Below, one piece after another: positions 4,931-17,759 of a stretch of DNA of 32,443 bases. Under the pieces are notes generated by a model, which made no database searches, was not told the DNA's origin, and was given only the letters and a program-made list of their open reading frames with translations. Origin of the DNA: a virus. Taxonomy: Duplodnaviria > Heunggongvirae > Uroviricota > Caudoviricetes. How positions within the stretch are numbered: the first letter of the stretch is position 1; every line of letters starts with the position of its first letter. Both the position numbers and the translations under genes were made by a program. The stretch lies in the IMG/VR virus record IMGVR_UViG_2541047794_000003. The stretch is one strand, 5' to 3'.

Positions 4931-5097
4931 GATGGCAGCCTCCGCGATGAATTTGATTAACTCACCACCGAGGTTTTCCACGACCATAAGGGTGGTGAGA
5001 CGTACAGGGGTGGAAATACCGGTCATCACGGAACCCGGCCAGCCTTGCGGCTGCCCTGCACGCCCCACCATAATGCGAATGTGGCTGTGCTTAACGC

Positions 5098-5122
5098 ATA
5101 AAAAAACCGCCTGAGCGCGGTT
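5098..5122 (-). terminator. Rho-independent terminator (minus strand) in early-left operon
   Basis: Perfect 6-bp stem AACCGC/GCGGTT with 6-nt loop followed (on minus strand) by a U-run; lies upstream of the Rha gene. Confidence 0.5.
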
Positions 5123-5799
5123 ATGCGCCGTGAATGATTTCGGGTTTCCACGCCCGGCACCCGTTTTATGAGGTGCAGGTGCACTATAATTCCACCCGTT
5201 CTGGTTTTCAATAGCTACATTCAACATTTTCTCTCACCTTTTCAGCGGAGTGAACTTTGTGATGCAGTGCCTGGTGCCTCCAGGTGACGTTAACCAGTTA
5301 ACAATTAACGCCGGATACAGAGAATCCACCCATAACACTGTTTTTGGTTTTAACTGTTCCGCGTGCGCTGAGCCGCATTCACCGCATCACAAAATTCACT
5401 TTAAAAAGGGCGGCAGAGCAGTCACGGAGTAAAACTGATACCGCCAAACGTCACCAGAAAATTGATAACAGAGGGCGTTGCAGCGGGGTTGTCACTTAAG
5501 CGTATGGTCAACCTGACAACCCGGTGTCCTCAACGGGGGAAGGAATAACCCCGCCATACTTACCGCCGCGCCATTTCGCGGATTGCCACAACCGGAAGCG
5601 CACGGTCGACGAAAATTTAACGACAGGCTATCTATGAACCAGCTACCTCGCCGTGCGCTTTCGCGTTATGGTCTGACTTTTCAGGGAAATATCCTTTCAG
5701 TAAACTGTCAGTGCCGGATTCTTATCCGTGTCCGGCGCACGACCACACGCTGTCACGAGAGGTCTCCATTCTCAACCAGTAACCTCAATGGAGGATAAA

Positions 5800-5994: not shown

Positions 5995-6333
5995 CATTTT
6001 TTTACGGCGTTCATATTCGTTAATATTTATGAAGCCTGTTGCCAGAAGCAGTTCGTTAATTTCATGGTTGTTTGGCTGTTTCTGGCTCTTTGAACTGGGA
6101 TCTTCCACTTCTTTTTCTGCAAATTGTTTTGCTGTATCCTCTGTGCCATGGATATTTAAAGCTGTATCTGAAAACAGCCCAGTAAACGCATCGCGCACAT
6201 TACGAGCCATATTATCAGTGTCTTTTTTTGTTACCGATTCCAATTCAAGTTCGTTCAGACGATGACGAAGTGTGTGTGCTGCAATCTCCTGGATTGAAGG
6301 AGGTAAATCTTTAAATTCCATCGTCAACCTCAT
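5983..6333 (-). CDS. Hypothetical acidic protein
   Basis: 116-aa ORF; start codon 6331-6333 overlaps stop of upstream gene (TGATG coupling); an alternative start 12 nt downstream has a GAGGT SD. Confidence 0.45.
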   Translation of the reverse strand: MRLTMEFKDLPPSIQEIAAHTLRHRLNELELESVTKKDTDNMARNVRDAFTGLFSDTALNIHGTEDTAKQFAEKEVEDPSSKSQKQPNNHEINELLLATGFININEYERRKKMLSD

Positions 6334-6485
6334 CAGTCAGTGTTTCTGGCTAACCAGCGACGCGCGCCAGCTGCGGTTTTAAACGTTTTGCTTTTGGTAT
6401 ACGTCATCGCGGTGAACGTACCGTCCTGGTTTGGGAACACACCACATACCAGAGATTCGCTGTTGCCAAGATCGATAGTATCCAT
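6333..6485 (-). CDS. Small protein resembling Rac prophage YdaF (DUF1391-like), first gene of leftward operon
   Basis: 50-aa reading frame MDTIDLGN...ARRWLARNTD from internal ATG (6483-6485) with GAGGT SD; sequence resemblance to YdaF is from memory; longer track ORF to 6566 lacks an SD. Confidence 0.5.
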   Translation of the reverse strand: MDTIDLGNSESLVCGVFPNQDGTFTAMTYTKSKTFKTAAGARRWLARNTD

Positions 6486-6671
6486 GCTGACCTCATTTCC
6501 CCTTAACGCCGGGGTAGCGGAACAAAAACCTGCTGCATAGTTATTAAAGTTGAACCCTGCCGTCATGTTCTTACGCCTCGGGCTGGCTACTTAACCCCTG
6601 ACCACTGCCTGGTAACTCGAAGTATTGCCCTGCATTCTGTGGGGCGGGGTGGGTTGGTATGAAAAGAAGGA

Positions 6672-6708
6672 TACCCATAGGTATTTAAAAAGTAAATACC
6701 CATGGGTA
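6672..6708. promoter_or_regulatory. OL-like operator pair: two TACC-N4-GGTA palindromes overlapping a leftward promoter
   Basis: tacccataggta (6672-6683) and perfect palindrome tacccatgggta (6697-6708), 25 bp centre to centre, just downstream of the repressor gene stop. Confidence 0.55.
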
Positions 6709-6749
6709 AATTTTGCGGTGTCTTAACTGGTGACTAGTTGTTTGGTGAG

Positions 6750-9719: not shown

Positions 9720-10490
9720 ATGGAAACCGTATCTGACGCACTGAAAGCACTGAAAAAAGCCTCTTCACATGTGGTGGCAGCTCGCCTTGGAATCAGTCGT
9801 GAAGAGGCTGTCAACGAGCTGTGGGAACTCAAAAGAAAAGGCGTCGTTGATAAAACTGGTCACACCTGGTTTCTGGCTGGCGAAGGTGAATCCCGGGTAA
9901 CCGAAGAGCGGCCAGTAAAATCTGAAGCACAGGATATGCTGACCGGGGAGGTCGAACAAAAAGTTACCGCAGACATGATGATTGAGTTTATCGGTCAGGA
10001 TGGGGCTAAAACGTGTGAGGAACTGGCGGGTAAGTTCGGTGTCAGTACTCGCAAGGTTGCTTCCACGCTGGCGGTGGTAACCGCAACGGGGCGGCTGGCA
10101 CGCGTTAATCAGAACGGTAAATTTCGTTACTGCATGCCGGGCGATAATTTACCAGCAGAGCCGAAAGCCGCGCTGGTAACGGAAAGTGATGGTAAGGCCT
10201 TTCCTCAGCCAGCAGGTGCTGCGTTACCAGTCCGGGAAGCCGCAACACAGGAAGAAATTAAAACAGAAACTGTGGCGGACATTGTGCAGCCGTTGCCATC
10301 GTTTACCGAAACGCAAGCAGATGAGCTGATTTTTCCGTCCCTTCGCAGGGCAAACCTGGCGCTGCGCAGGGCGAAAAGTGATGTTCAGAAGTGGGAGCGA
10401 GTCTGCGCCGCGCTGCGGGAGCTGAACAAGCACCGGGATATTGTTCGACAGATTACTGATTCTTCCCGCCGTGTTGTATCGGAAAAGTGA
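9720..10490 (+). CDS. Hypothetical phage protein
   Basis: 256-aa ORF with GGAGG SD and ATG at 9720; no recognisable catalytic motif. Confidence 0.6.
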   Translation: METVSDALKALKKASSHVVAARLGISREEAVNELWELKRKGVVDKTGHTWFLAGEGESRVTEERPVKSEAQDMLTGEVEQKVTADMMIEFIGQDGAKTCEELAGKFGVSTRKVASTLAVVTATGRLARVNQNGKFRYCMPGDNLPAEPKAALVTESDGKAFPQPAGAALPVREAATQEEIKTETVADIVQPLPSFTETQADELIFPSLRRANLALRRAKSDVQKWERVCAALRELNKHRDIVRQITDSSRRVVSEK

Positions 10491-10505
10491 TTGCCGGAGG
10501 CGCTT

Positions 10506-10931
10506 ATGGCAAAAGTATTTACACAAGAAGAGCGGGAAAAAATTAAAGGGCAGGTTGTTGAACTTGTACGTCTGAGCGGTCGCGAGACGTTGCGGCAACT
10601 GGAAGCCAAGACAGGTGCGACAAGATATCTGATGAGTGTTCTCGCCAGAGAGCTGGTTGCCAGTGGCGATGTATACAACTCTGGTTACGGGTTATTCCCG
10701 TCTGAACAGGCGCGTAAGGACTGGCAAAATGCTCGCAAAAAACTCTCAAGGGCAAAGGTGAAGAAACCTGCAGTGGTTGATCCGGACCTTATCTGGTCGT
10801 TACCAGACGGCGAAATACGCCGCTACGACAGGCGCCTGAATATAATCTGTCGCGAGTGCCGGAAGAGCGAAGCTATGCAGCGTGTACTGGCATTTTATCA
10901 AGGAAATGTTAGGTATTTTAGACGTTACTAG
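10506..10931 (+). CDS. Hypothetical phage protein
   Basis: ATG at 10506 preceded by GGAGG (track start 10491 is TTG); 141 aa. Confidence 0.55.
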   Translation: MAKVFTQEEREKIKGQVVELVRLSGRETLRQLEAKTGATRYLMSVLARELVASGDVYNSGYGLFPSEQARKDWQNARKKLSRAKVKKPAVVDPDLIWSLPDGEIRRYDRRLNIICRECRKSEAMQRVLAFYQGNVRYFRRY

Positions 10932-11084
10932 ATTAAAGAGCATTAGTTCAGATGTGAATTGACATTTTCATGGCGCAGGGTAGAGCCAGCGTGGTTGTCC
11001 GCTTTGCGTCAAAACCAGATATTACCAGATTTAGACATATATTCCCGATAGCCCTGCTCTGATGCTACACTCTGTGCTATTTTC

Positions 11085-11771
11085 ATGACCCCAATAAAAA
11101 TATTTATGACTATTGCTGATTTCAAACGGCCTAAATTGGAGCTCCCAAACGGGGCAAACAAACTACTACTGCACTCTTGCTGTGCTCCATGTTCCGGTGA
11201 AGTGATGGAGGCGCTTCAGGCCTCGGGAATCGACTACACCATCTTTTTCTACAACCCGAACATTCATCCTCAGAAAGAGTATTTAATTCGTAAGGATGAA
11301 AATATTCGCTTTGCTGAACAACACGGCGTGCCGTTTATCGATGCTGATTACGACACCGACAACTGGTTTGAACGTGCCAAAGGAATGGAATGGGAGCCTG
11401 AGAGGGGGATCCGTTGTACCATGTGTTTTGACATGCGTTTTGAGCGGACAGCGTTGTACGCTGCTGAAAATGGTTTCAGTGTGATCAGCAGTTCACTGGG
11501 CATTTCACGCTGGAAAAATATGCAGCAGGTTAACGAGTGTGGGCGGCGAGCTGTTGCGCATTATCCGGGTATGGTGTACTGGGATTATAACTGGCGCAAG
11601 CAGGGCGGCTCGTCCCGTATGATTGAAATCAGCAAGCGCGAAAAATTCTATCAGCAGGAATATTGTGGCTGTGTGTATTCTCTGCGCGATACCAATCTAC
11701 ACCGCAAATCTCAGGGACGCCCTCTTATCAAAATTGGCCAACTCCACTACGGAAAAGAAGAGAAGGAGTGA
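11085..11771 (+). CDS. queH: DUF208-family protein, likely epoxyqueuosine reductase QueH-like
   Basis: 228-aa ORF with [11 protein letters not shown] motif and additional conserved Cys (CTMC, CGC) typical of DUF208/QueH. Confidence 0.55.
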
Positions 11772-11879
11772 TTTTATGGATCACCTTTCTGATTGATTTC
11801 ATATTGGCGAGGTGACGTGAGTTAAGTAGAATGGCTGCGGGTGCTTGAGGCTATCTGTCTCAGGCATGAACACTGAAAG

Positions 11880-11960
11880 GCAGATAGAGAAAAGCCCCAG
11901 TTAACATTTCGCGTCCTGCAAGACGCTTAACATTAATCTGAGGCCCAATCTATGTCTCAC
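11880..11960 (-). ncRNA. Candidate Sok-like antisense RNA of the hok locus (approximate bounds)
   Basis: Minus-strand region complementary to hok leader/mok start; contains GGGGCU hairpin element analogous to Sok 3' end; candidate promoter TTGCCT-N17-TAACCT on minus strand. Confidence 0.35.
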
Positions 11961-12008
11961 AAATGTAGGTTAGCCTCTTACGTGCCGAAAGGCAAGGGGA
12001 AGCAGGCT

Positions 12009-12164
12009 ATGAAGCAGCAAAAGGCGATGTTAATCGCCCTGATCGTCATCTGTTTAACCGTCATAGTGACGGCACTGGTAACGAGGAAAGACCTCTGCGA
12101 GGTACGACTCCGAACCGGCCAGACGGAGGTCGCTGTCTTCACAGCTTACGAACCTGAGGAGTAA
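12009..12164 (+). CDS. hok: Hok/Gef-family type I toxin (small membrane peptide)
   Basis: 51-aa ORF MKQQKAMLIALIVICLTVIVTALVTRKDLCEVRLRTGQTEVAVFTAYEPEE matching Hok family pattern; leader has tac/ucb-like elements; in-frame upstream ATG at 11952 (mok-like). Confidence 0.85.
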   Translation: MKQQKAMLIALIVICLTVIVTALVTRKDLCEVRLRTGQTEVAVFTAYEPEE

Positions 12165-12214
12165 GAGACCTGGCGGGGGAGAAATCCCTCGCCACCTCTG
12201 ATGTGTCAGGCATC

Positions 12215-12256
12215 CTCAACGCACCCGCACTTAACCCGGTTCGGCGGGTTTTGTTT
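12215..12256 (+). terminator. Terminator / fold-back element at hok mRNA 3' end
   Basis: Hairpin CCCGC...GCGGG followed by TTTTGTTTTTTT. Confidence 0.5.
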
Positions 12257-12331
12257 TTTTCTGGCATTCTGGTTTACAATTCGCACGTCAGCCTGAACAC
12301 CTGACACCTGCTGCGCCAGCAGAGAAAACAG

Positions 12332-12604
12332 ATGGCGCACAAAACCAAATTTCACAATTCTGATACCGACCTTGCCATCCGGCATGGGCGGCGTTCACAC
12401 GCATTTAAAACCGACTGGTACCAACACCCACCATGTACTGAAGAACAGGCCGAATGGCTAATTCATAACTACCGCAGACGCGGATACGAGATTAAGAAAG
12501 CCCTCAGCCTCGATTATCGTCACTGGATAATCTCCGTCAGGCTTCCTTACTCTGAACGCCCACCGCGTCCGTCCCGCACATTCCAGCAACGCATCTGGAG
12601 GTAA
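12332..12604 (+). CDS. Hypothetical 90-aa protein, translationally coupled to downstream DUF968 gene
   Basis: ATG at 12332; stop 12602-12604 within GGAGGTAACGTG so that its last codons carry the SD of the next gene. Confidence 0.5.
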   Translation: MAHKTKFHNSDTDLAIRHGRRSHAFKTDWYQHPPCTEEQAEWLIHNYRRRGYEIKKALSLDYRHWIISVRLPYSERPPRPSRTFQQRIWR

Positions 12605-12605
12605 C

Positions 12606-13661
12606 GTGCGGGTATTACTTCGACCTGTTCTGGTACCGGAACTCGGGCTGGTGATCGTTAAGCCGGGCCGTGAATCCATGCCGGTATTCCACAATACCCG
12701 GGTACTGGTGGAGCCGGAACCGAAAAGCATGCGTAATCTGCCGTCCGGGGTCGTTCCTGCCGTTCGCCAGCCGCTGGCGGAGGATAAATCATTACTGCCA
12801 TTTTTCAGCGACGAACGAGTGATTCGTGCTGCTGGTGGCGCTGGCGCATTGTCTGACTGGTTACTGCGCCATGTTAAATCCTGCCAGTGGCCACACGGCG
12901 ATTATCACCACAGTGAAACCGTCATTCACCGTTATGGTACCGGCGCAATGGTGTTGTGCTGGCACTGCGACAACCAGCTGCGCGACCAGACCTCCGAATC
13001 ACTCGGGCAACTTGCTCACCAAAACCTGTTTGCATGGATGATTGACGTCATACGCCATGCAATGAATGGCTCGCAGGAACGGGAATTATCGCTGGCTGAA
13101 TTATCCTGGTGGGCGGTCCGCAATCAGGTGGCGGACGCGCTACCGGAAGCGGTATTACGTCGTTCGCTGGGGTTGCGTGCGGAAAAAATCCGCTCAATGT
13201 ACCGTGAAAGCGACATCGTACCGGGAGAGCAGACCGCCACCAGCATACTGAAGCAGCGCACAAAAAATCTTGCGCCGCTGCCTCACGCCCACCAGCAAAA
13301 CCCGCCACAGGAAAAGACGGTGGTCAGCATTGCCGTTGATCCGGAGTCACCGGCTCAGTATCTCCAGCGCCAGAAATCACAACGGGAAGAGATGCCTGTA
13401 TACACGCGTTGGGTAAAAACGCAGAAATGCATGACGTGTGGCAATCAGGCAGATGATCCGCATCACATCATTGGTCATGGACTGGGAGGGATGGGAACAA
13501 AGGCTGATGATTTGTTTGTTATTCCGCTGTGCCGTAAATGCCATAGCGAACTACACGCCGGGGTAGAAGATTTTGAAGAAAAACACGGCAGCCAGCTGTT
13601 GTTGCTGATTCGTTTTTTAATGCACGCGAGAAATTCGGGTGTTTTGAAGTGGAAAGCATAA
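12606..13661 (+). CDS. DUF968-type protein with HNH-like zinc-binding motifs (YdfU-like)
   Basis: 351 aa, GTG start with GGAGG SD; C-terminal CMTCG...DPHHIIGH...CRKCHSELH HNH-like motif and an upstream Cys/His cluster. Confidence 0.65.
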   Translation: MRVLLRPVLVPELGLVIVKPGRESMPVFHNTRVLVEPEPKSMRNLPSGVVPAVRQPLAEDKSLLPFFSDERVIRAAGGAGALSDWLLRHVKSCQWPHGDYHHSETVIHRYGTGAMVLCWHCDNQLRDQTSESLGQLAHQNLFAWMIDVIRHAMNGSQERELSLAELSWWAVRNQVADALPEAVLRRSLGLRAEKIRSMYRESDIVPGEQTATSILKQRTKNLAPLPHAHQQNPPQEKTVVSIAVDPESPAQYLQRQKSQREEMPVYTRWVKTQKCMTCGNQADDPHHIIGHGLGGMGTKADDLFVIPLCRKCHSELHAGVEDFEEKHGSQLLLLIRFLMHARNSGVLKWKA

Positions 13662-15434: not shown

Positions 15435-16484
15435 ATGCTTAATACTGTAAAAATATCCAGTTGTGAGTTAATCAACGCCGACTGCCTGGAATTTATCCGG
15501 TCGTTACCCGAAAATTCTGTTGACCTGATAGTCACGGACCCGCCGTACTTTAAAGTGAAGCCTGAGGGCTGGGATAACCAGTGGAAGGGCGACGATGATT
15601 ACCTGAAGTGGCTGGACCAGTGTCTGGCGCAGTTCTGGCGGGTGCTGAAACCTGCCGGAAGTCTTTACCTGTTCTGTGGTCATCGCCTGGCATCTGATAT
15701 CGAAATCATGATGCGTGAACGCTTCAGTGTGCTGAACCATATTATCTGGGCGAAGCCGTCCGGACGCTGGAACGGATGCAACAAGGAAAGCCTGCGGGCG
15801 TATTTCCCCGCCACAGAGCGCATTCTGTTCGCGGAACATTATCAGGGGCCGTATCGTCCGAAAGATGCCGGGTATGCGGTGAAGGGCAGTGCACTGAAAC
15901 AGCATGTGATGGCCCCGCTGATTTCTTACTTTCGTGATGCGCGCGCGGCCCTGGGGATAACGGCAAAACAGATTGCAGATGCCACAGGAAAGAAAAACAT
16001 GGTGTCGCACTGGTTCAGTGCCAGTCAGTGGCAGCTACCGAACGAAAGCGATTATCTGAAATTACAGTCGCTGTTTGCCCGGGTGGCAGAAGAGAAACAT
16101 CAGCGCGGTGAACTGGAAAAGCCCCACCACCAGCTGGTGGATACGTATACGTCACTGAACCGGCAGTATGTGGAGCTGCAGAGTGAATATAAGCATCTGC
16201 GGCGGTATTTTGGTGTGACGGCGCAGGTGCCGTACACGGATGTGTGGACACATAAACCGGTGCAGTTCTATCCCGGGAAACATCCGTGCGAAAAACCGGC
16301 AGAAATGCTGCAGCAGATAATCAGCGCAAGTAGCCGTCCTGGTGATCTGGTTGCGGATTTTTTCATGGGGTCGGGTTCAACGGTAAAAGCGGCGATGGCA
16401 CTGGGGCGTCGTGCGATTGGTGTTGAGCTGGAGACCGGACGTTTTGAGCAGACAGTCAGGGAAGTTCAGGATTTAATCGTTTGA
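15435..16484 (+). CDS. Orphan DNA methyltransferase, probably N6-adenine (beta-class motif order)
   Basis: 349 aa; TDPPY motif IV near N-terminus and FFMGSGST motif I near C-terminus; no adjacent restriction gene. Confidence 0.8.
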   Translation: MLNTVKISSCELINADCLEFIRSLPENSVDLIVTDPPYFKVKPEGWDNQWKGDDDYLKWLDQCLAQFWRVLKPAGSLYLFCGHRLASDIEIMMRERFSVLNHIIWAKPSGRWNGCNKESLRAYFPATERILFAEHYQGPYRPKDAGYAVKGSALKQHVMAPLISYFRDARAALGITAKQIADATGKKNMVSHWFSASQWQLPNESDYLKLQSLFARVAEEKHQRGELEKPHHQLVDTYTSLNRQYVELQSEYKHLRRYFGVTAQVPYTDVWTHKPVQFYPGKHPCEKPAEMLQQIISASSRPGDLVADFFMGSGSTVKAAMALGRRAIGVELETGRFEQTVREVQDLIV

Positions 16485-16533: not shown

Positions 16534-16609
16534 GGCCCTTTAGCTCAGTGGTGAGAGCGAGCGACTCATAATCGCCAGGTCGCTGGTTCAAATCCAGCAA
16601 GGGCCACCA
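16534..16609 (+). tRNA. ileZ: tRNA-Ile (anticodon CAT, lysidine type; ileZ-like)
   Basis: 76-nt cloverleaf GGCCCTT...AAGGGCC-A-CCA; anticodon loop CTCATAA; near-identical architecture to E. coli tRNA-Ile2. Confidence 0.8.
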
Positions 16610-16616
16610 TCACATA

Positions 16617-16693
16617 CCGCCATTAGCTCATCAGGAAAGAGCGCCAGCCTTCGAAGCTGGTTGCGCGGAGTTCGGGTCCCCGAAGGCGGTCCA
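16617..16693 (+). tRNA. tRNA-Arg (anticodon TCG as read), atypical
   Basis: Cloverleaf with anticodon stem CCAGC/GCTGG and loop CTTCGAA; one mismatch in acceptor stem (A6:A67) and one in T-stem, T-loop TTCGGGT; ends CCA. Confidence 0.55.
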
Positions 16694-16706
16694 TTATCTG
16701 TATCCT

Positions 16707-16783
16707 GCGTTGTTAGCTCAGCCGGACAGAGCAATTGCCTTCTAAGCAATCGGTCACTGGTTCGAATCCAGTACAACGCGCCA
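16707..16783 (+). tRNA. argO: tRNA-Arg (anticodon TCT, reads AGA)
   Basis: Perfect acceptor stem GCGTTGT/ACAACGC, anticodon loop CTTCTAA, T-loop TTCGAAT, discriminator G, CCA. Confidence 0.8.
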
Positions 16784-16829: not shown

Positions 16830-17045
16830 CTCACAATTTAGGCGGTTGACTGTTGTCTGGTTTGCGGGGAGTTTGTTAAAAGAAACTGGCATGGTGAATC
16901 CCCCTGTGCGGAGGGGCAATCAGCGAGTAGGTATATGGGATAATCGCGGATTCAGGTGCTGGTACTGAATTCACCGGGAGGCACCCGGCACCATGCAATG
17001 GCACATAGCGCCACTCTCCAGCCCCTCTCCGGAGGGGCTTTTCTG
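16830..17045 (+). repeat. Module A of tandem structured non-coding element (conserved arms GCATGGTG.../...CACCATGC, internal hairpins, terminator)
   Basis: CTCACAATT + TTGACT motif, conserved arm gcatggtgaatccccctgtgcggaggggc (16889-), arm ctgaattcaccgggaggcacccggcaccatgc (-16996), terminator CCCCTC tccg GAGGGG + T-run (17022-17045). Confidence 0.5.
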
Positions 17046-17297
17046 TGCCGGATACATCACAGTTTCTGGAACCTTAGGTACTACAGTATCAGTCAGGGTG
17101 CTATATTTTCAGATGTGATGAAAGCCTGTCAGCAGGCAGGGCGTATCGGAAATGACCCAGTAGAGAAAACGTTGACTCAGATACCGGTGCTGAGTTACCG
17201 GGAAACCGGCATCACATGACCGCTATCCTTCCAGGCCCATCCGCTCCGGTGGGCCTTTTTACTGCAGAAAACAGGTTCCCCGTTAAATGCTATGTTG

Positions 17298-17532
17298 CTC
17301 ACAATTCAGTAAGTTGACAGTTGCCTGTCAGACTGGGCATTTGTTAAAAAAATTTCGCATGGTGAATCCCCCTGAGCGGAGGGGCGACTGGTGACGGTAT
17401 AATCTCTGATTATCAAAACGAGAATGACGCGGGTTTAGTGGCACCGGGCTGAACTCACCGGGAGGCACCCGGCACCATGTGCATGATGATACAGATACGC
17501 GGCTTTAGCCCCTCTCCGGAGGGGTTTTCTTG
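17298..17532 (+). repeat. Module B, second copy of the same structured element with divergent core
   Basis: Same conserved arms (17357-17479) and same terminator (17507-17532); central ~60 nt unrelated to module A; preceded by terminator GGCCCA...TGGGCC+TTTTT (17234-17261). Confidence 0.5.
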
Positions 17533-17759
17533 TGGGCAAAAAAAGCCCGCGCTGGGAGACGCGGGCGGCAAGGAATAAACAATAAAACGTGAAGTAATAT
17601 TTCAGCTGGCGAATAATACCCCATAGTAATCACTCTGCGCAACTGCGCGGTCTTTTTCGAATTGCGGGCTGTCGTCTCTCTTCTGCCATTGTCCTGTAAC
17701 TTCCGGACTTCAGCCCGCTCCTTATTTTACTCACAATATTATCCCGGCCGGGAGGATTC

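Follow-up and report, generated by a model that had tools for sequence, protein, structure and literature searches.

What is a gene of tRNA queuosine maturation doing in a lambdoid prophage? The stretch of DNA analysed here (the window, 32,443 nucleotides of Caudoviricetes sequence) is a lambdoid Escherichia coli prophage whose integration site adjoins ompW, and it encodes an intact member of the QueH family of epoxyqueuosine reductases. Arguing from sequence, we consider it likely that this protein is a functional QueH acting on host tRNA and that its gene was captured from a cellular chromosome. More tentatively, and with some doubt, we propose that the prophage brings about lysogenic conversion of host tRNA modification, such that queH+ E. 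coli would finish queuosine (Q) without B12, and queH− E. coli, for example K-12, would be left with epoxyqueuosine (oQ) whenever B12 runs short. The coding sequence and its cysteine motifs are as follows.

11085..11771, + strand: longest open reading frame (ORF), 228 amino acids; an intact QueH ORF.
11106..11771, + strand: queH coding sequence from its likeliest start, 221 amino acids, epoxyqueuosine reductase QueH (PGAP start, homologue alignment, Pfam).
11085..11105, + strand: seven extra N-terminal codons of the longest ORF, probably 5' UTR (non-conserved ATG, absent from homologues).
11172..11195, + strand: HSCCAPCS motif, residues 30-37 of the 228-residue ORF; Cys32 and Cys33 are equivalent to Thermotoga maritima C9 and C10, and Cys36 to Asp13.
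11415..11426, + strand: CTMC motif, Cys111 and Cys114, equivalent to T. maritima C87 and C90.
11664..11672, + strand: CGC motif, Cys194 and Cys196, equivalent to T. maritima C169 and C171.

A sequence-only reading of this DNA had assigned the ORF to QueH/DUF208 from its HSCCAPCS motif, with a profile search as the proposed check and absence of the conserved Cys ligands from an alignment as the grounds for rejection. The assignment holds. Pfam PF02677 (QueH, formerly DUF208) matches ORF 11085-11771 with E=1.1e-65 and 221.5 bits against a cut-off of 23.5; the match is end to end, covering profile positions 1-174 of 175, and all six Cys columns are present on alignment. The T. maritima QueH structures 7lc5 and 7lc7 are matched with E=8e-22, and 9deu likewise with E of about 1e-21. 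Pfam matches PF02677 only, and the QueG domains PF08331 and PF13484 are not in the protein. An NCBIfam scan of the protein matched no model; this null is uninformative, because PGAP nonetheless names the protein QueH. Judged by these matches, membership of the QueH family is far beyond chance. The first methionine of the ORF is another matter, and the true start is most likely ATG 11106 rather than 11085: RefSeq/PGAP starts the product at 11106, the chromosomal homologues align from the equivalent position without the seven upstream residues, and the GF47 prophage allele has ATT in place of the 11085 ATG, whereas the prophage alleles compared all agree at and around the 11106 ATG.

The protein was first aligned with eight proteobacterial homologues and T. 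maritima QueH. A search of 1.84 billion 50%-identity representatives then gave 4775 matches at E<=0.001, and conservation was scored on 63 sequences, namely the query, T. maritima QueH and 61 whole-domain representatives from the best 150 of the 4775. The columns of Cys32, 33, 111, 114, 194 and 196 are Cys in 63 of these 63 diverse sequences (Cys32 and Cys33, in the numbering of the 228-residue ORF, are C25 and C26 when counted from the 11106 start). Similarly, the protein has N52, E99, R103, K137, Q184 and G188 (counting from the 11106 start), and all of these are invariant in 63/63. The six conserved cysteines of QueH (CC, CxxC and CxC) are reportedly ligands of the Fe-S cluster and metal, an assignment attributed to the 2021 structure paper and the UniProt rule. 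The column of T. maritima Asp13, which is Cys36 in the window protein, is Cys in 59 and Asp in 4 of the 63 sequences, and thus CCAPC is the usual form of QueH and that of T. maritima a minority form; the PDB also holds the T. maritima mutants D13N (9DCO) and C9S (9D86). An AlphaFold2 model of the protein is of only moderate confidence (pLDDT 70.7, pTM 0.72). Its best PDB matches are nonetheless five QueH entries (E 8e-8 to 1e-6, target-normalised TM 0.70-0.72), followed by PP-loop folds of the TtuA/LarE type, and on this model the protein has the QueH fold, which is adenine-nucleotide alpha-hydrolase-like. Among the 50%-identity representatives we also noted a QueH domain at the C-terminal end of proteins of 719-1398 amino acids (P0125, P0129, P0135, P0138) and one QueH fused to ribosomal protein S21 (P0094); such fusions may be real or may be gene-calling artefacts.

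Where in the prophage does the gene lie? Over its first 25 kb the window is all but identical (a rounded 100.0%) to E. coli AR_0017 (NZ_CP024886.1). The two sequences differ in the length of a T-run at 6715, and a DNA methyltransferase ORF of 349 amino acids (15435-16484) is open in the window and annotated as frameshifted in NZ_CP024886.1. The early genes run int, xis, exo, dicB and rha, then repressor, cro-like gene and YdaT, then O-like, DnaC-like, DUF1627 and DUF977 genes, followed by queH; on its 3' side come hokD, a 90-codon ORF, DUF968, RusA, Q, the DNA methyltransferase and tRNA-Ile/Arg/Arg, and after the tRNAs DUF6645, lysis genes, terminase, head and tail. queH thus occupies a variable cargo position with replication genes on one side and the hokD/DUF968/RusA/Q block on the other, and the earlier label "nin-equivalent region" is a fair one, since the gene lies between the replication genes and Q.

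The proposal that queH sits next to three tRNA genes and shares with them a theme of translation tuning fares less well. The tRNA genes are real (16534-16783; Ile2(CAU), Arg(UCG) and Arg(UCU)), but they lie 4.76 kb downstream of queH, beyond hokD, DUF968, rusA, Q and the methyltransferase gene, and form a separate module downstream of Q. Queuosine is confined to the Asp, Asn, His and Tyr tRNAs, and QueH therefore has no substrate among these three. The first of them (16534-16609) is called tRNA-Met(CAT) by ARAGORN and tRNA-Ile by PGAP; it is probably an ileZ-like tRNA-Ile2 that needs lysidine.

Several RNA elements were also located. Immediately 3' of queH comes a type I toxin-antitoxin locus, hok/sok (11839-12164), with the Rfam sok family (RF01794) at 11839-12014 (120.5 bits), a hokD coding sequence ending at 12164, an overlapping mok-like ORF (11952-12164) and a promoter-like site at 11804-11832. 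On the − strand of the early-left arm (4988-5459) lie the C4 antisense RNA (4988-5075), isrK (5100-5176) and DicF (5408-5459), all scoring above their Rfam gathering thresholds. Between the three tRNA genes and the DUF6645 gene lie two tandem copies of the STnc100 sRNA (16860-17050 and 17328-17537; 136 and 161 bits). The equivalent position in Stx phages is occupied by stx; there are no stx genes in the annotation of the window. Rfam, run over the whole window, found no riboswitch or other RNA at queH, and the RNA fold of the spacer upstream of the gene (10925-11110) is unremarkable (z=-1.1).

Comparison of alleles by blastn delimits a unit that has moved between genomes.

11056..11775, + strand: mobile queH module of about 720 bp, comprising the promoter-like element, the coding sequence and 4 nt past the stop; common to the Scandinavium chromosomal queH and all prophage alleles (blastn).
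11063..11071, + strand: TGcTACACT, resembling an extended -10 promoter, with its hexamer at 11066-11071; 34 nt separate it from ATG 11106 downstream.

Window positions 11056-11775 align with a Scandinavium chromosome at 84%, positions 11057-11775 align with the Rac-like GF47 prophage at 90%, and homology to the isolated Escherichia phage HannyBb stops at 11777. The mobile unit is therefore about 720 bp long and includes about 50 bp of upstream sequence; across backbones it is a discrete insertion with mosaic boundaries between conserved phage modules. The DNA immediately 3' of queH is a recombination hot spot (window 11776-12330; L001 12872-14882; L090 7672-8045), and the right-hand neighbour differs between backbones, being hokD, a restriction-modification system, a 373-bp segment or DUF1971. 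In O157:H7, for example, Z1832 is followed by a Dcm methyltransferase and a restriction enzyme of the NgoMIV family. In HannyBb, E. coli B and GF47, queH is followed by an additional segment of about 370 bp with a hairpin, GCAGGTCAT...ATGACCTGC; in the window, queH runs straight into hok/sok without this segment.

The upstream part of the cassette is equally well kept. The block CTCTGATGCTACAC, which contains TGcTACACT, is invariant in four prophage alleles despite differing DNA further upstream, and TGcTACACT stands at equal distance before the chromosomal queH of Erwinia, Scandinavium, Kluyvera and Enterobacter. More broadly, 20 of the 76 species loci compared have TGnTAnnnT at -60..-20, against 0 of 76 control windows. 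A consensus sigma-70 scan of 10400-12700 did not flag TGcTACACT, the only promoter-like site near queH in that scan being that of hok (11804-11832). To us TGcTACACT looks like a native extended -10 promoter co-transferred with queH, and it is somewhat probable that queH is expressed in the lysogen from its own promoter.

We propose that a lambdoid phage captured the queH cassette, apparently with this promoter, from the chromosome of a Scandinavium- or Kluyvera-like member of the Enterobacteriaceae, a related gut bacterium. The gene now forms a "moron", a piece of cargo with the replication module on one side and the hokD/DUF968/RusA/Q block on the other. In the lysogen it would probably be transcribed from its own promoter, and read-through after induction may contribute as well. 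Read-through could instead be the point of the arrangement, with transcription from the early-right (pR-like) operon supplying QueH in the lytic cycle to top up Q for late-mRNA decoding and frame maintenance. queH is on the same strand as that operon, at the position of delayed-early genes, and may for that reason of orientation be expressed mainly on induction; there is no terminator-like site from the DUF977 gene to queH. (On the other side of the gene, the terminator scan of 10400-12700 found none between 11771 and the hok/sok locus; a hairpin downstream of queH exists in the longer HannyBb, E. coli B and GF47 alleles.) The fraction of NAU codons at the Tyr, His, Asn and Asp boxes is 0.56 in the prophage, 0.60 in its late genes and 0.53 in a small sample of K-12 host genes, so that late genes use them slightly more often, but the difference is small. 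The cassette, moreover, has its own conserved promoter-like element, queH is intact in remnants that are unable to grow lytically, such as the Qin-like remnant of E. coli B, and tRNA turnover in a short lytic cycle would presumably leave little time for a top-up to take effect. We therefore regard a mainly lytic role as unlikely, while noting that it is compatible with a role in the lysogen and that the two are possibly both played. For a codon-usage rationale for queH as such we found no support, there being no marked NAU bias in the prophage.

Did the gene come from a cell, and has it been kept for its function? Outside prophages, its relatives share 82-92% amino acid identity and stand in non-phage chromosomal contexts. 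The closest are those of Scandinavium (92%), Kluyvera (91%) and Enterobacter (88-89%). In Erwinia the order is purL-queH-glrK, in Providencia queH lies between tmcA/DUF441 and purC, and at the Scandinavium locus and one Enterobacter locus the flanking genes are metabolic and not phage genes. When phage markers and the Erwinia and Providencia flank markers were searched by tblastn against 80 species loci, there were almost no matches, which means that chromosomal queH contexts differ between genera and nothing more. A neighbour-joining tree (without bootstrap) groups the four prophage alleles in a single clade that is sister to Scandinavium/Kluyvera.

Among the prophage alleles dS is 0.27-0.46 and dN/dS is 0.03-0.06, and GC3 falls from about 60-66% in the nearest chromosomal queH genes to 47-53%. 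Since the prophage alleles are monophyletic, their divergence post-dates capture, and the low dN/dS at this dS, together with the drop in GC3, points to long residence in phages under strong purifying selection; a single clade with such values indicates that prophage queH has been kept functional. These values also contradict the suggestion that queH is a neutral passenger, redundant with the host's universal queG and hitch-hiking with hok/sok or with successful prophages. The suggestion has in its favour that hokD is often adjacent and that no phenotype is known. However, the divergence at issue accrued after capture, inside phages, 985 of 995 carriers have kept the gene intact, and queH occurs without an adjacent hokD in Rac-like GF47 and in O157 Z1832. 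We judge neutral carriage to be quite improbable.

What would a functional QueH do in a lysogen? The sequence-only reading took QueG to be the normal E. coli enzyme for this step, and indeed all of 5426 complete E. coli genomes contain queG; every queH carrier therefore has both enzymes. E. coli does not synthesise cobalamin de novo, and without cobalamin it reportedly accumulates oQ, an observation attributed to Frey et al. in 1988. Because QueG needs cobalamin, QueH does not and E. coli lacks de novo synthesis, prophage QueH would be a B12-independent backup that uncouples Q maturation from the B12 supply. In the proposed mechanism, it would reduce oQ to Q at position 34 of the host Asp, Asn, His and Tyr tRNAs, with a predicted chemistry that uses a [4Fe-4S] cluster and an adjacent Cys-ligated metal site. 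We know of no E. coli phenotype that separates oQ from Q, and the selective benefit of queH is accordingly conjectural; a benefit related to B12 is a conceivable explanation, if a slightly doubtful one. The cobalamin dependence of QueG and the cobalamin independence of QueH are taken from earlier work (PMC5175355, PMC11906303), and the upstream host pathway, in which tgt and queA yield oQ-tRNA, is established for E. coli (PMC5372724).

QueG and QueH are both present in Pantoea dispersa (at the level of the species, not of one genome) and both occur in the genus Enterobacter, in different species, and the dual state is therefore probably not peculiar to lysogens. Separately, work on prolonged carriage of ESBL E. 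coli lists a queG nonsense mutation that arose within a host (PMC8477403), a hint that E. coli can do without QueG in vivo.

A substrate other than tRNA must also be weighed. QueH could act on an epoxy-7-deazaguanine in phage DNA as an anti-restriction measure, or it could alter tRNAs targeted by anticodon nucleases in a conflict role; phages do use 7-deazaguanine chemistry on DNA (PMC6884629), and conflict genes stand beside queH (the restriction-modification system at O157:H7 Z1832, and hok/sok in the window). The prophage region, though, with 58 features in its annotation, has no DpdA/TGT-like, FolE, QueC, QueD, QueE or QueA gene, and PADLOC, run on QueH and five neighbours, assigned QueH to no defence system. 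Identity to chromosomal QueH is 91-92%, and the same constraints act on both. With partner genes missing and near-identity to a housekeeping enzyme, a DNA or conflict substrate is very improbable, and the earlier alternative of a nucleic-acid (DNA) modification function, which would call for DpdA/TGT-like or preQ0 genes, is set aside in favour of action on host tRNA.

How widespread is the gene, and how has it been named? Of 5426 complete E. coli genomes, 995 (about 18%) carry queH, with at least 80% of the gene kept in 985 of the 995, and among the carriers are an O157:H7 strain, a Rac-like prophage and, in the E. coli B lineage, a Qin-like remnant; E. albertii also has it. The gene occurs in 190 IMG/VR viral contigs and in phage HannyBb (96.8% amino acid identity, labelled "hypothetical protein"). 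It is intact in three distinct prophage backbones, in the E. coli B remnant and in HannyBb. In E. coli B-DidR (NZ_CP115968.1, L091), an intact queH at 6022-6687 lies within a heavily degraded Qin-like remnant in which DUF968 is truncated, an IS3 has inserted and a tail gene is truncated. B-derived laboratory strains probably carry QueG and QueH, unlike K-12. Other QueH-bearing "phage" records (unannotated faecal contigs, and records of 280-380 kb) were discounted as possible bacterial contamination.

All 995 E. coli carriers have the RefSeq annotation "epoxyqueuosine reductase QueH", and the window protein is RefSeq WP_000150294.1, already so named. In PHROGs it falls in phrog_3217, "unknown function", with E=1.9e-138. 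The phrog_3217 profile starts at residue 41 of the ORF, and the CCAPC motif therefore lies outside it; with the profile beginning there, many phage annotations start at an internal Met and lose CCAPC, which may explain the "unknown function" status in phage resources. According to cited literature and PDB entries, QueH has been a defined family since 2017, and its structure followed in 2021. Our search of the literature for phage or prophage QueH, DUF208 or epoxyqueuosine reductase found no description of a phage-borne QueH, and Hutinet et al. (2019, PMC6884629), who surveyed viral 7-deazaguanine genes, reported no QueA, QueG or QueH homologue in their set of viruses. The identification as QueH is thus already public, and it is the phage context alone that is undescribed in the literature searched. 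The finding is sound, yet prophage queH is an ordinary example of a host gene that a phage has taken up and carries.

No new kind of system is at issue here, since the family, the chemistry and the protein name are already in public databases. If the gene is active in lysogens, then about one in five E. coli genomes, the E. coli B lineage included, would have a phage-acquired B12-independent route to queuosine. Lysogenic conversion, if true, would make this the first documented phage enzyme specific to the tRNA-queuosine branch and could account for strain differences in oQ/Q content. Experiments with queG deletion or B12 limitation would then give different results in K-12 and in B-lineage strains, the reach of phage "auxiliary" genes would be seen to extend to the tRNA epitranscriptome, and the labels of PHROG 3217 ("unknown function") and the HannyBb protein ("hypothetical protein") could be updated. 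The proposal makes a testable prediction in the relative amounts of Q and oQ in queH+ and queH− strains without B12.

Finally, we compare the prophage gene with known systems. With T. maritima QueH (PF02677/DUF208, EC 1.17.99.6; PDB 7LC5/7LC7/9DEU) the window protein has in common the family, the fold, the six Cys and the invariant residues. The two are only 33% identical, however, with Asp13 in one and Cys36 in the other, and unlike the T. maritima enzyme the window QueH is phage-encoded and has a 4-residue insertion after CCAPC and a basic C-terminal tail of about 25 residues, both also found in proteobacterial QueH. The chromosomal QueH proteins of Enterobacterales (Scandinavium, Kluyvera, Enterobacter, Erwinia and Providencia) have the same length and start, but their genes lie among metabolic or housekeeping genes and not in a lambdoid prophage. 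QueG of E. coli (b4166) catalyses the same reaction as QueH on the same tRNAs (PMC5372724) and is found in the same cells, yet QueG (PF13484 and PF08331) is unrelated in sequence to QueH (PF02677), and only QueG needs cobalamin (PMC11906303). Phage systems with DpdA, FolE and QueC/D/E likewise place queuosine/7-deazaguanine-pathway genes on a phage; those systems depend on DpdA and have phage DNA as the target of modification, whereas the window has a lone Q-specific tRNA enzyme (PMC6884629 for the phage systems). There is also a parallel in arrangement with lambdoid "morons" of the replication-to-Q region, which are alike in having their own promoter-like element and hokD, a rem-like gene, DUF968 and Q as neighbours. 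Qin of K-12, for example, probably has relBE-hokD cargo in the equivalent slot. The usual cargo of a moron is a toxin-antitoxin, exclusion or virulence gene; in the window it is a tRNA-modification enzyme of the housekeeping type.
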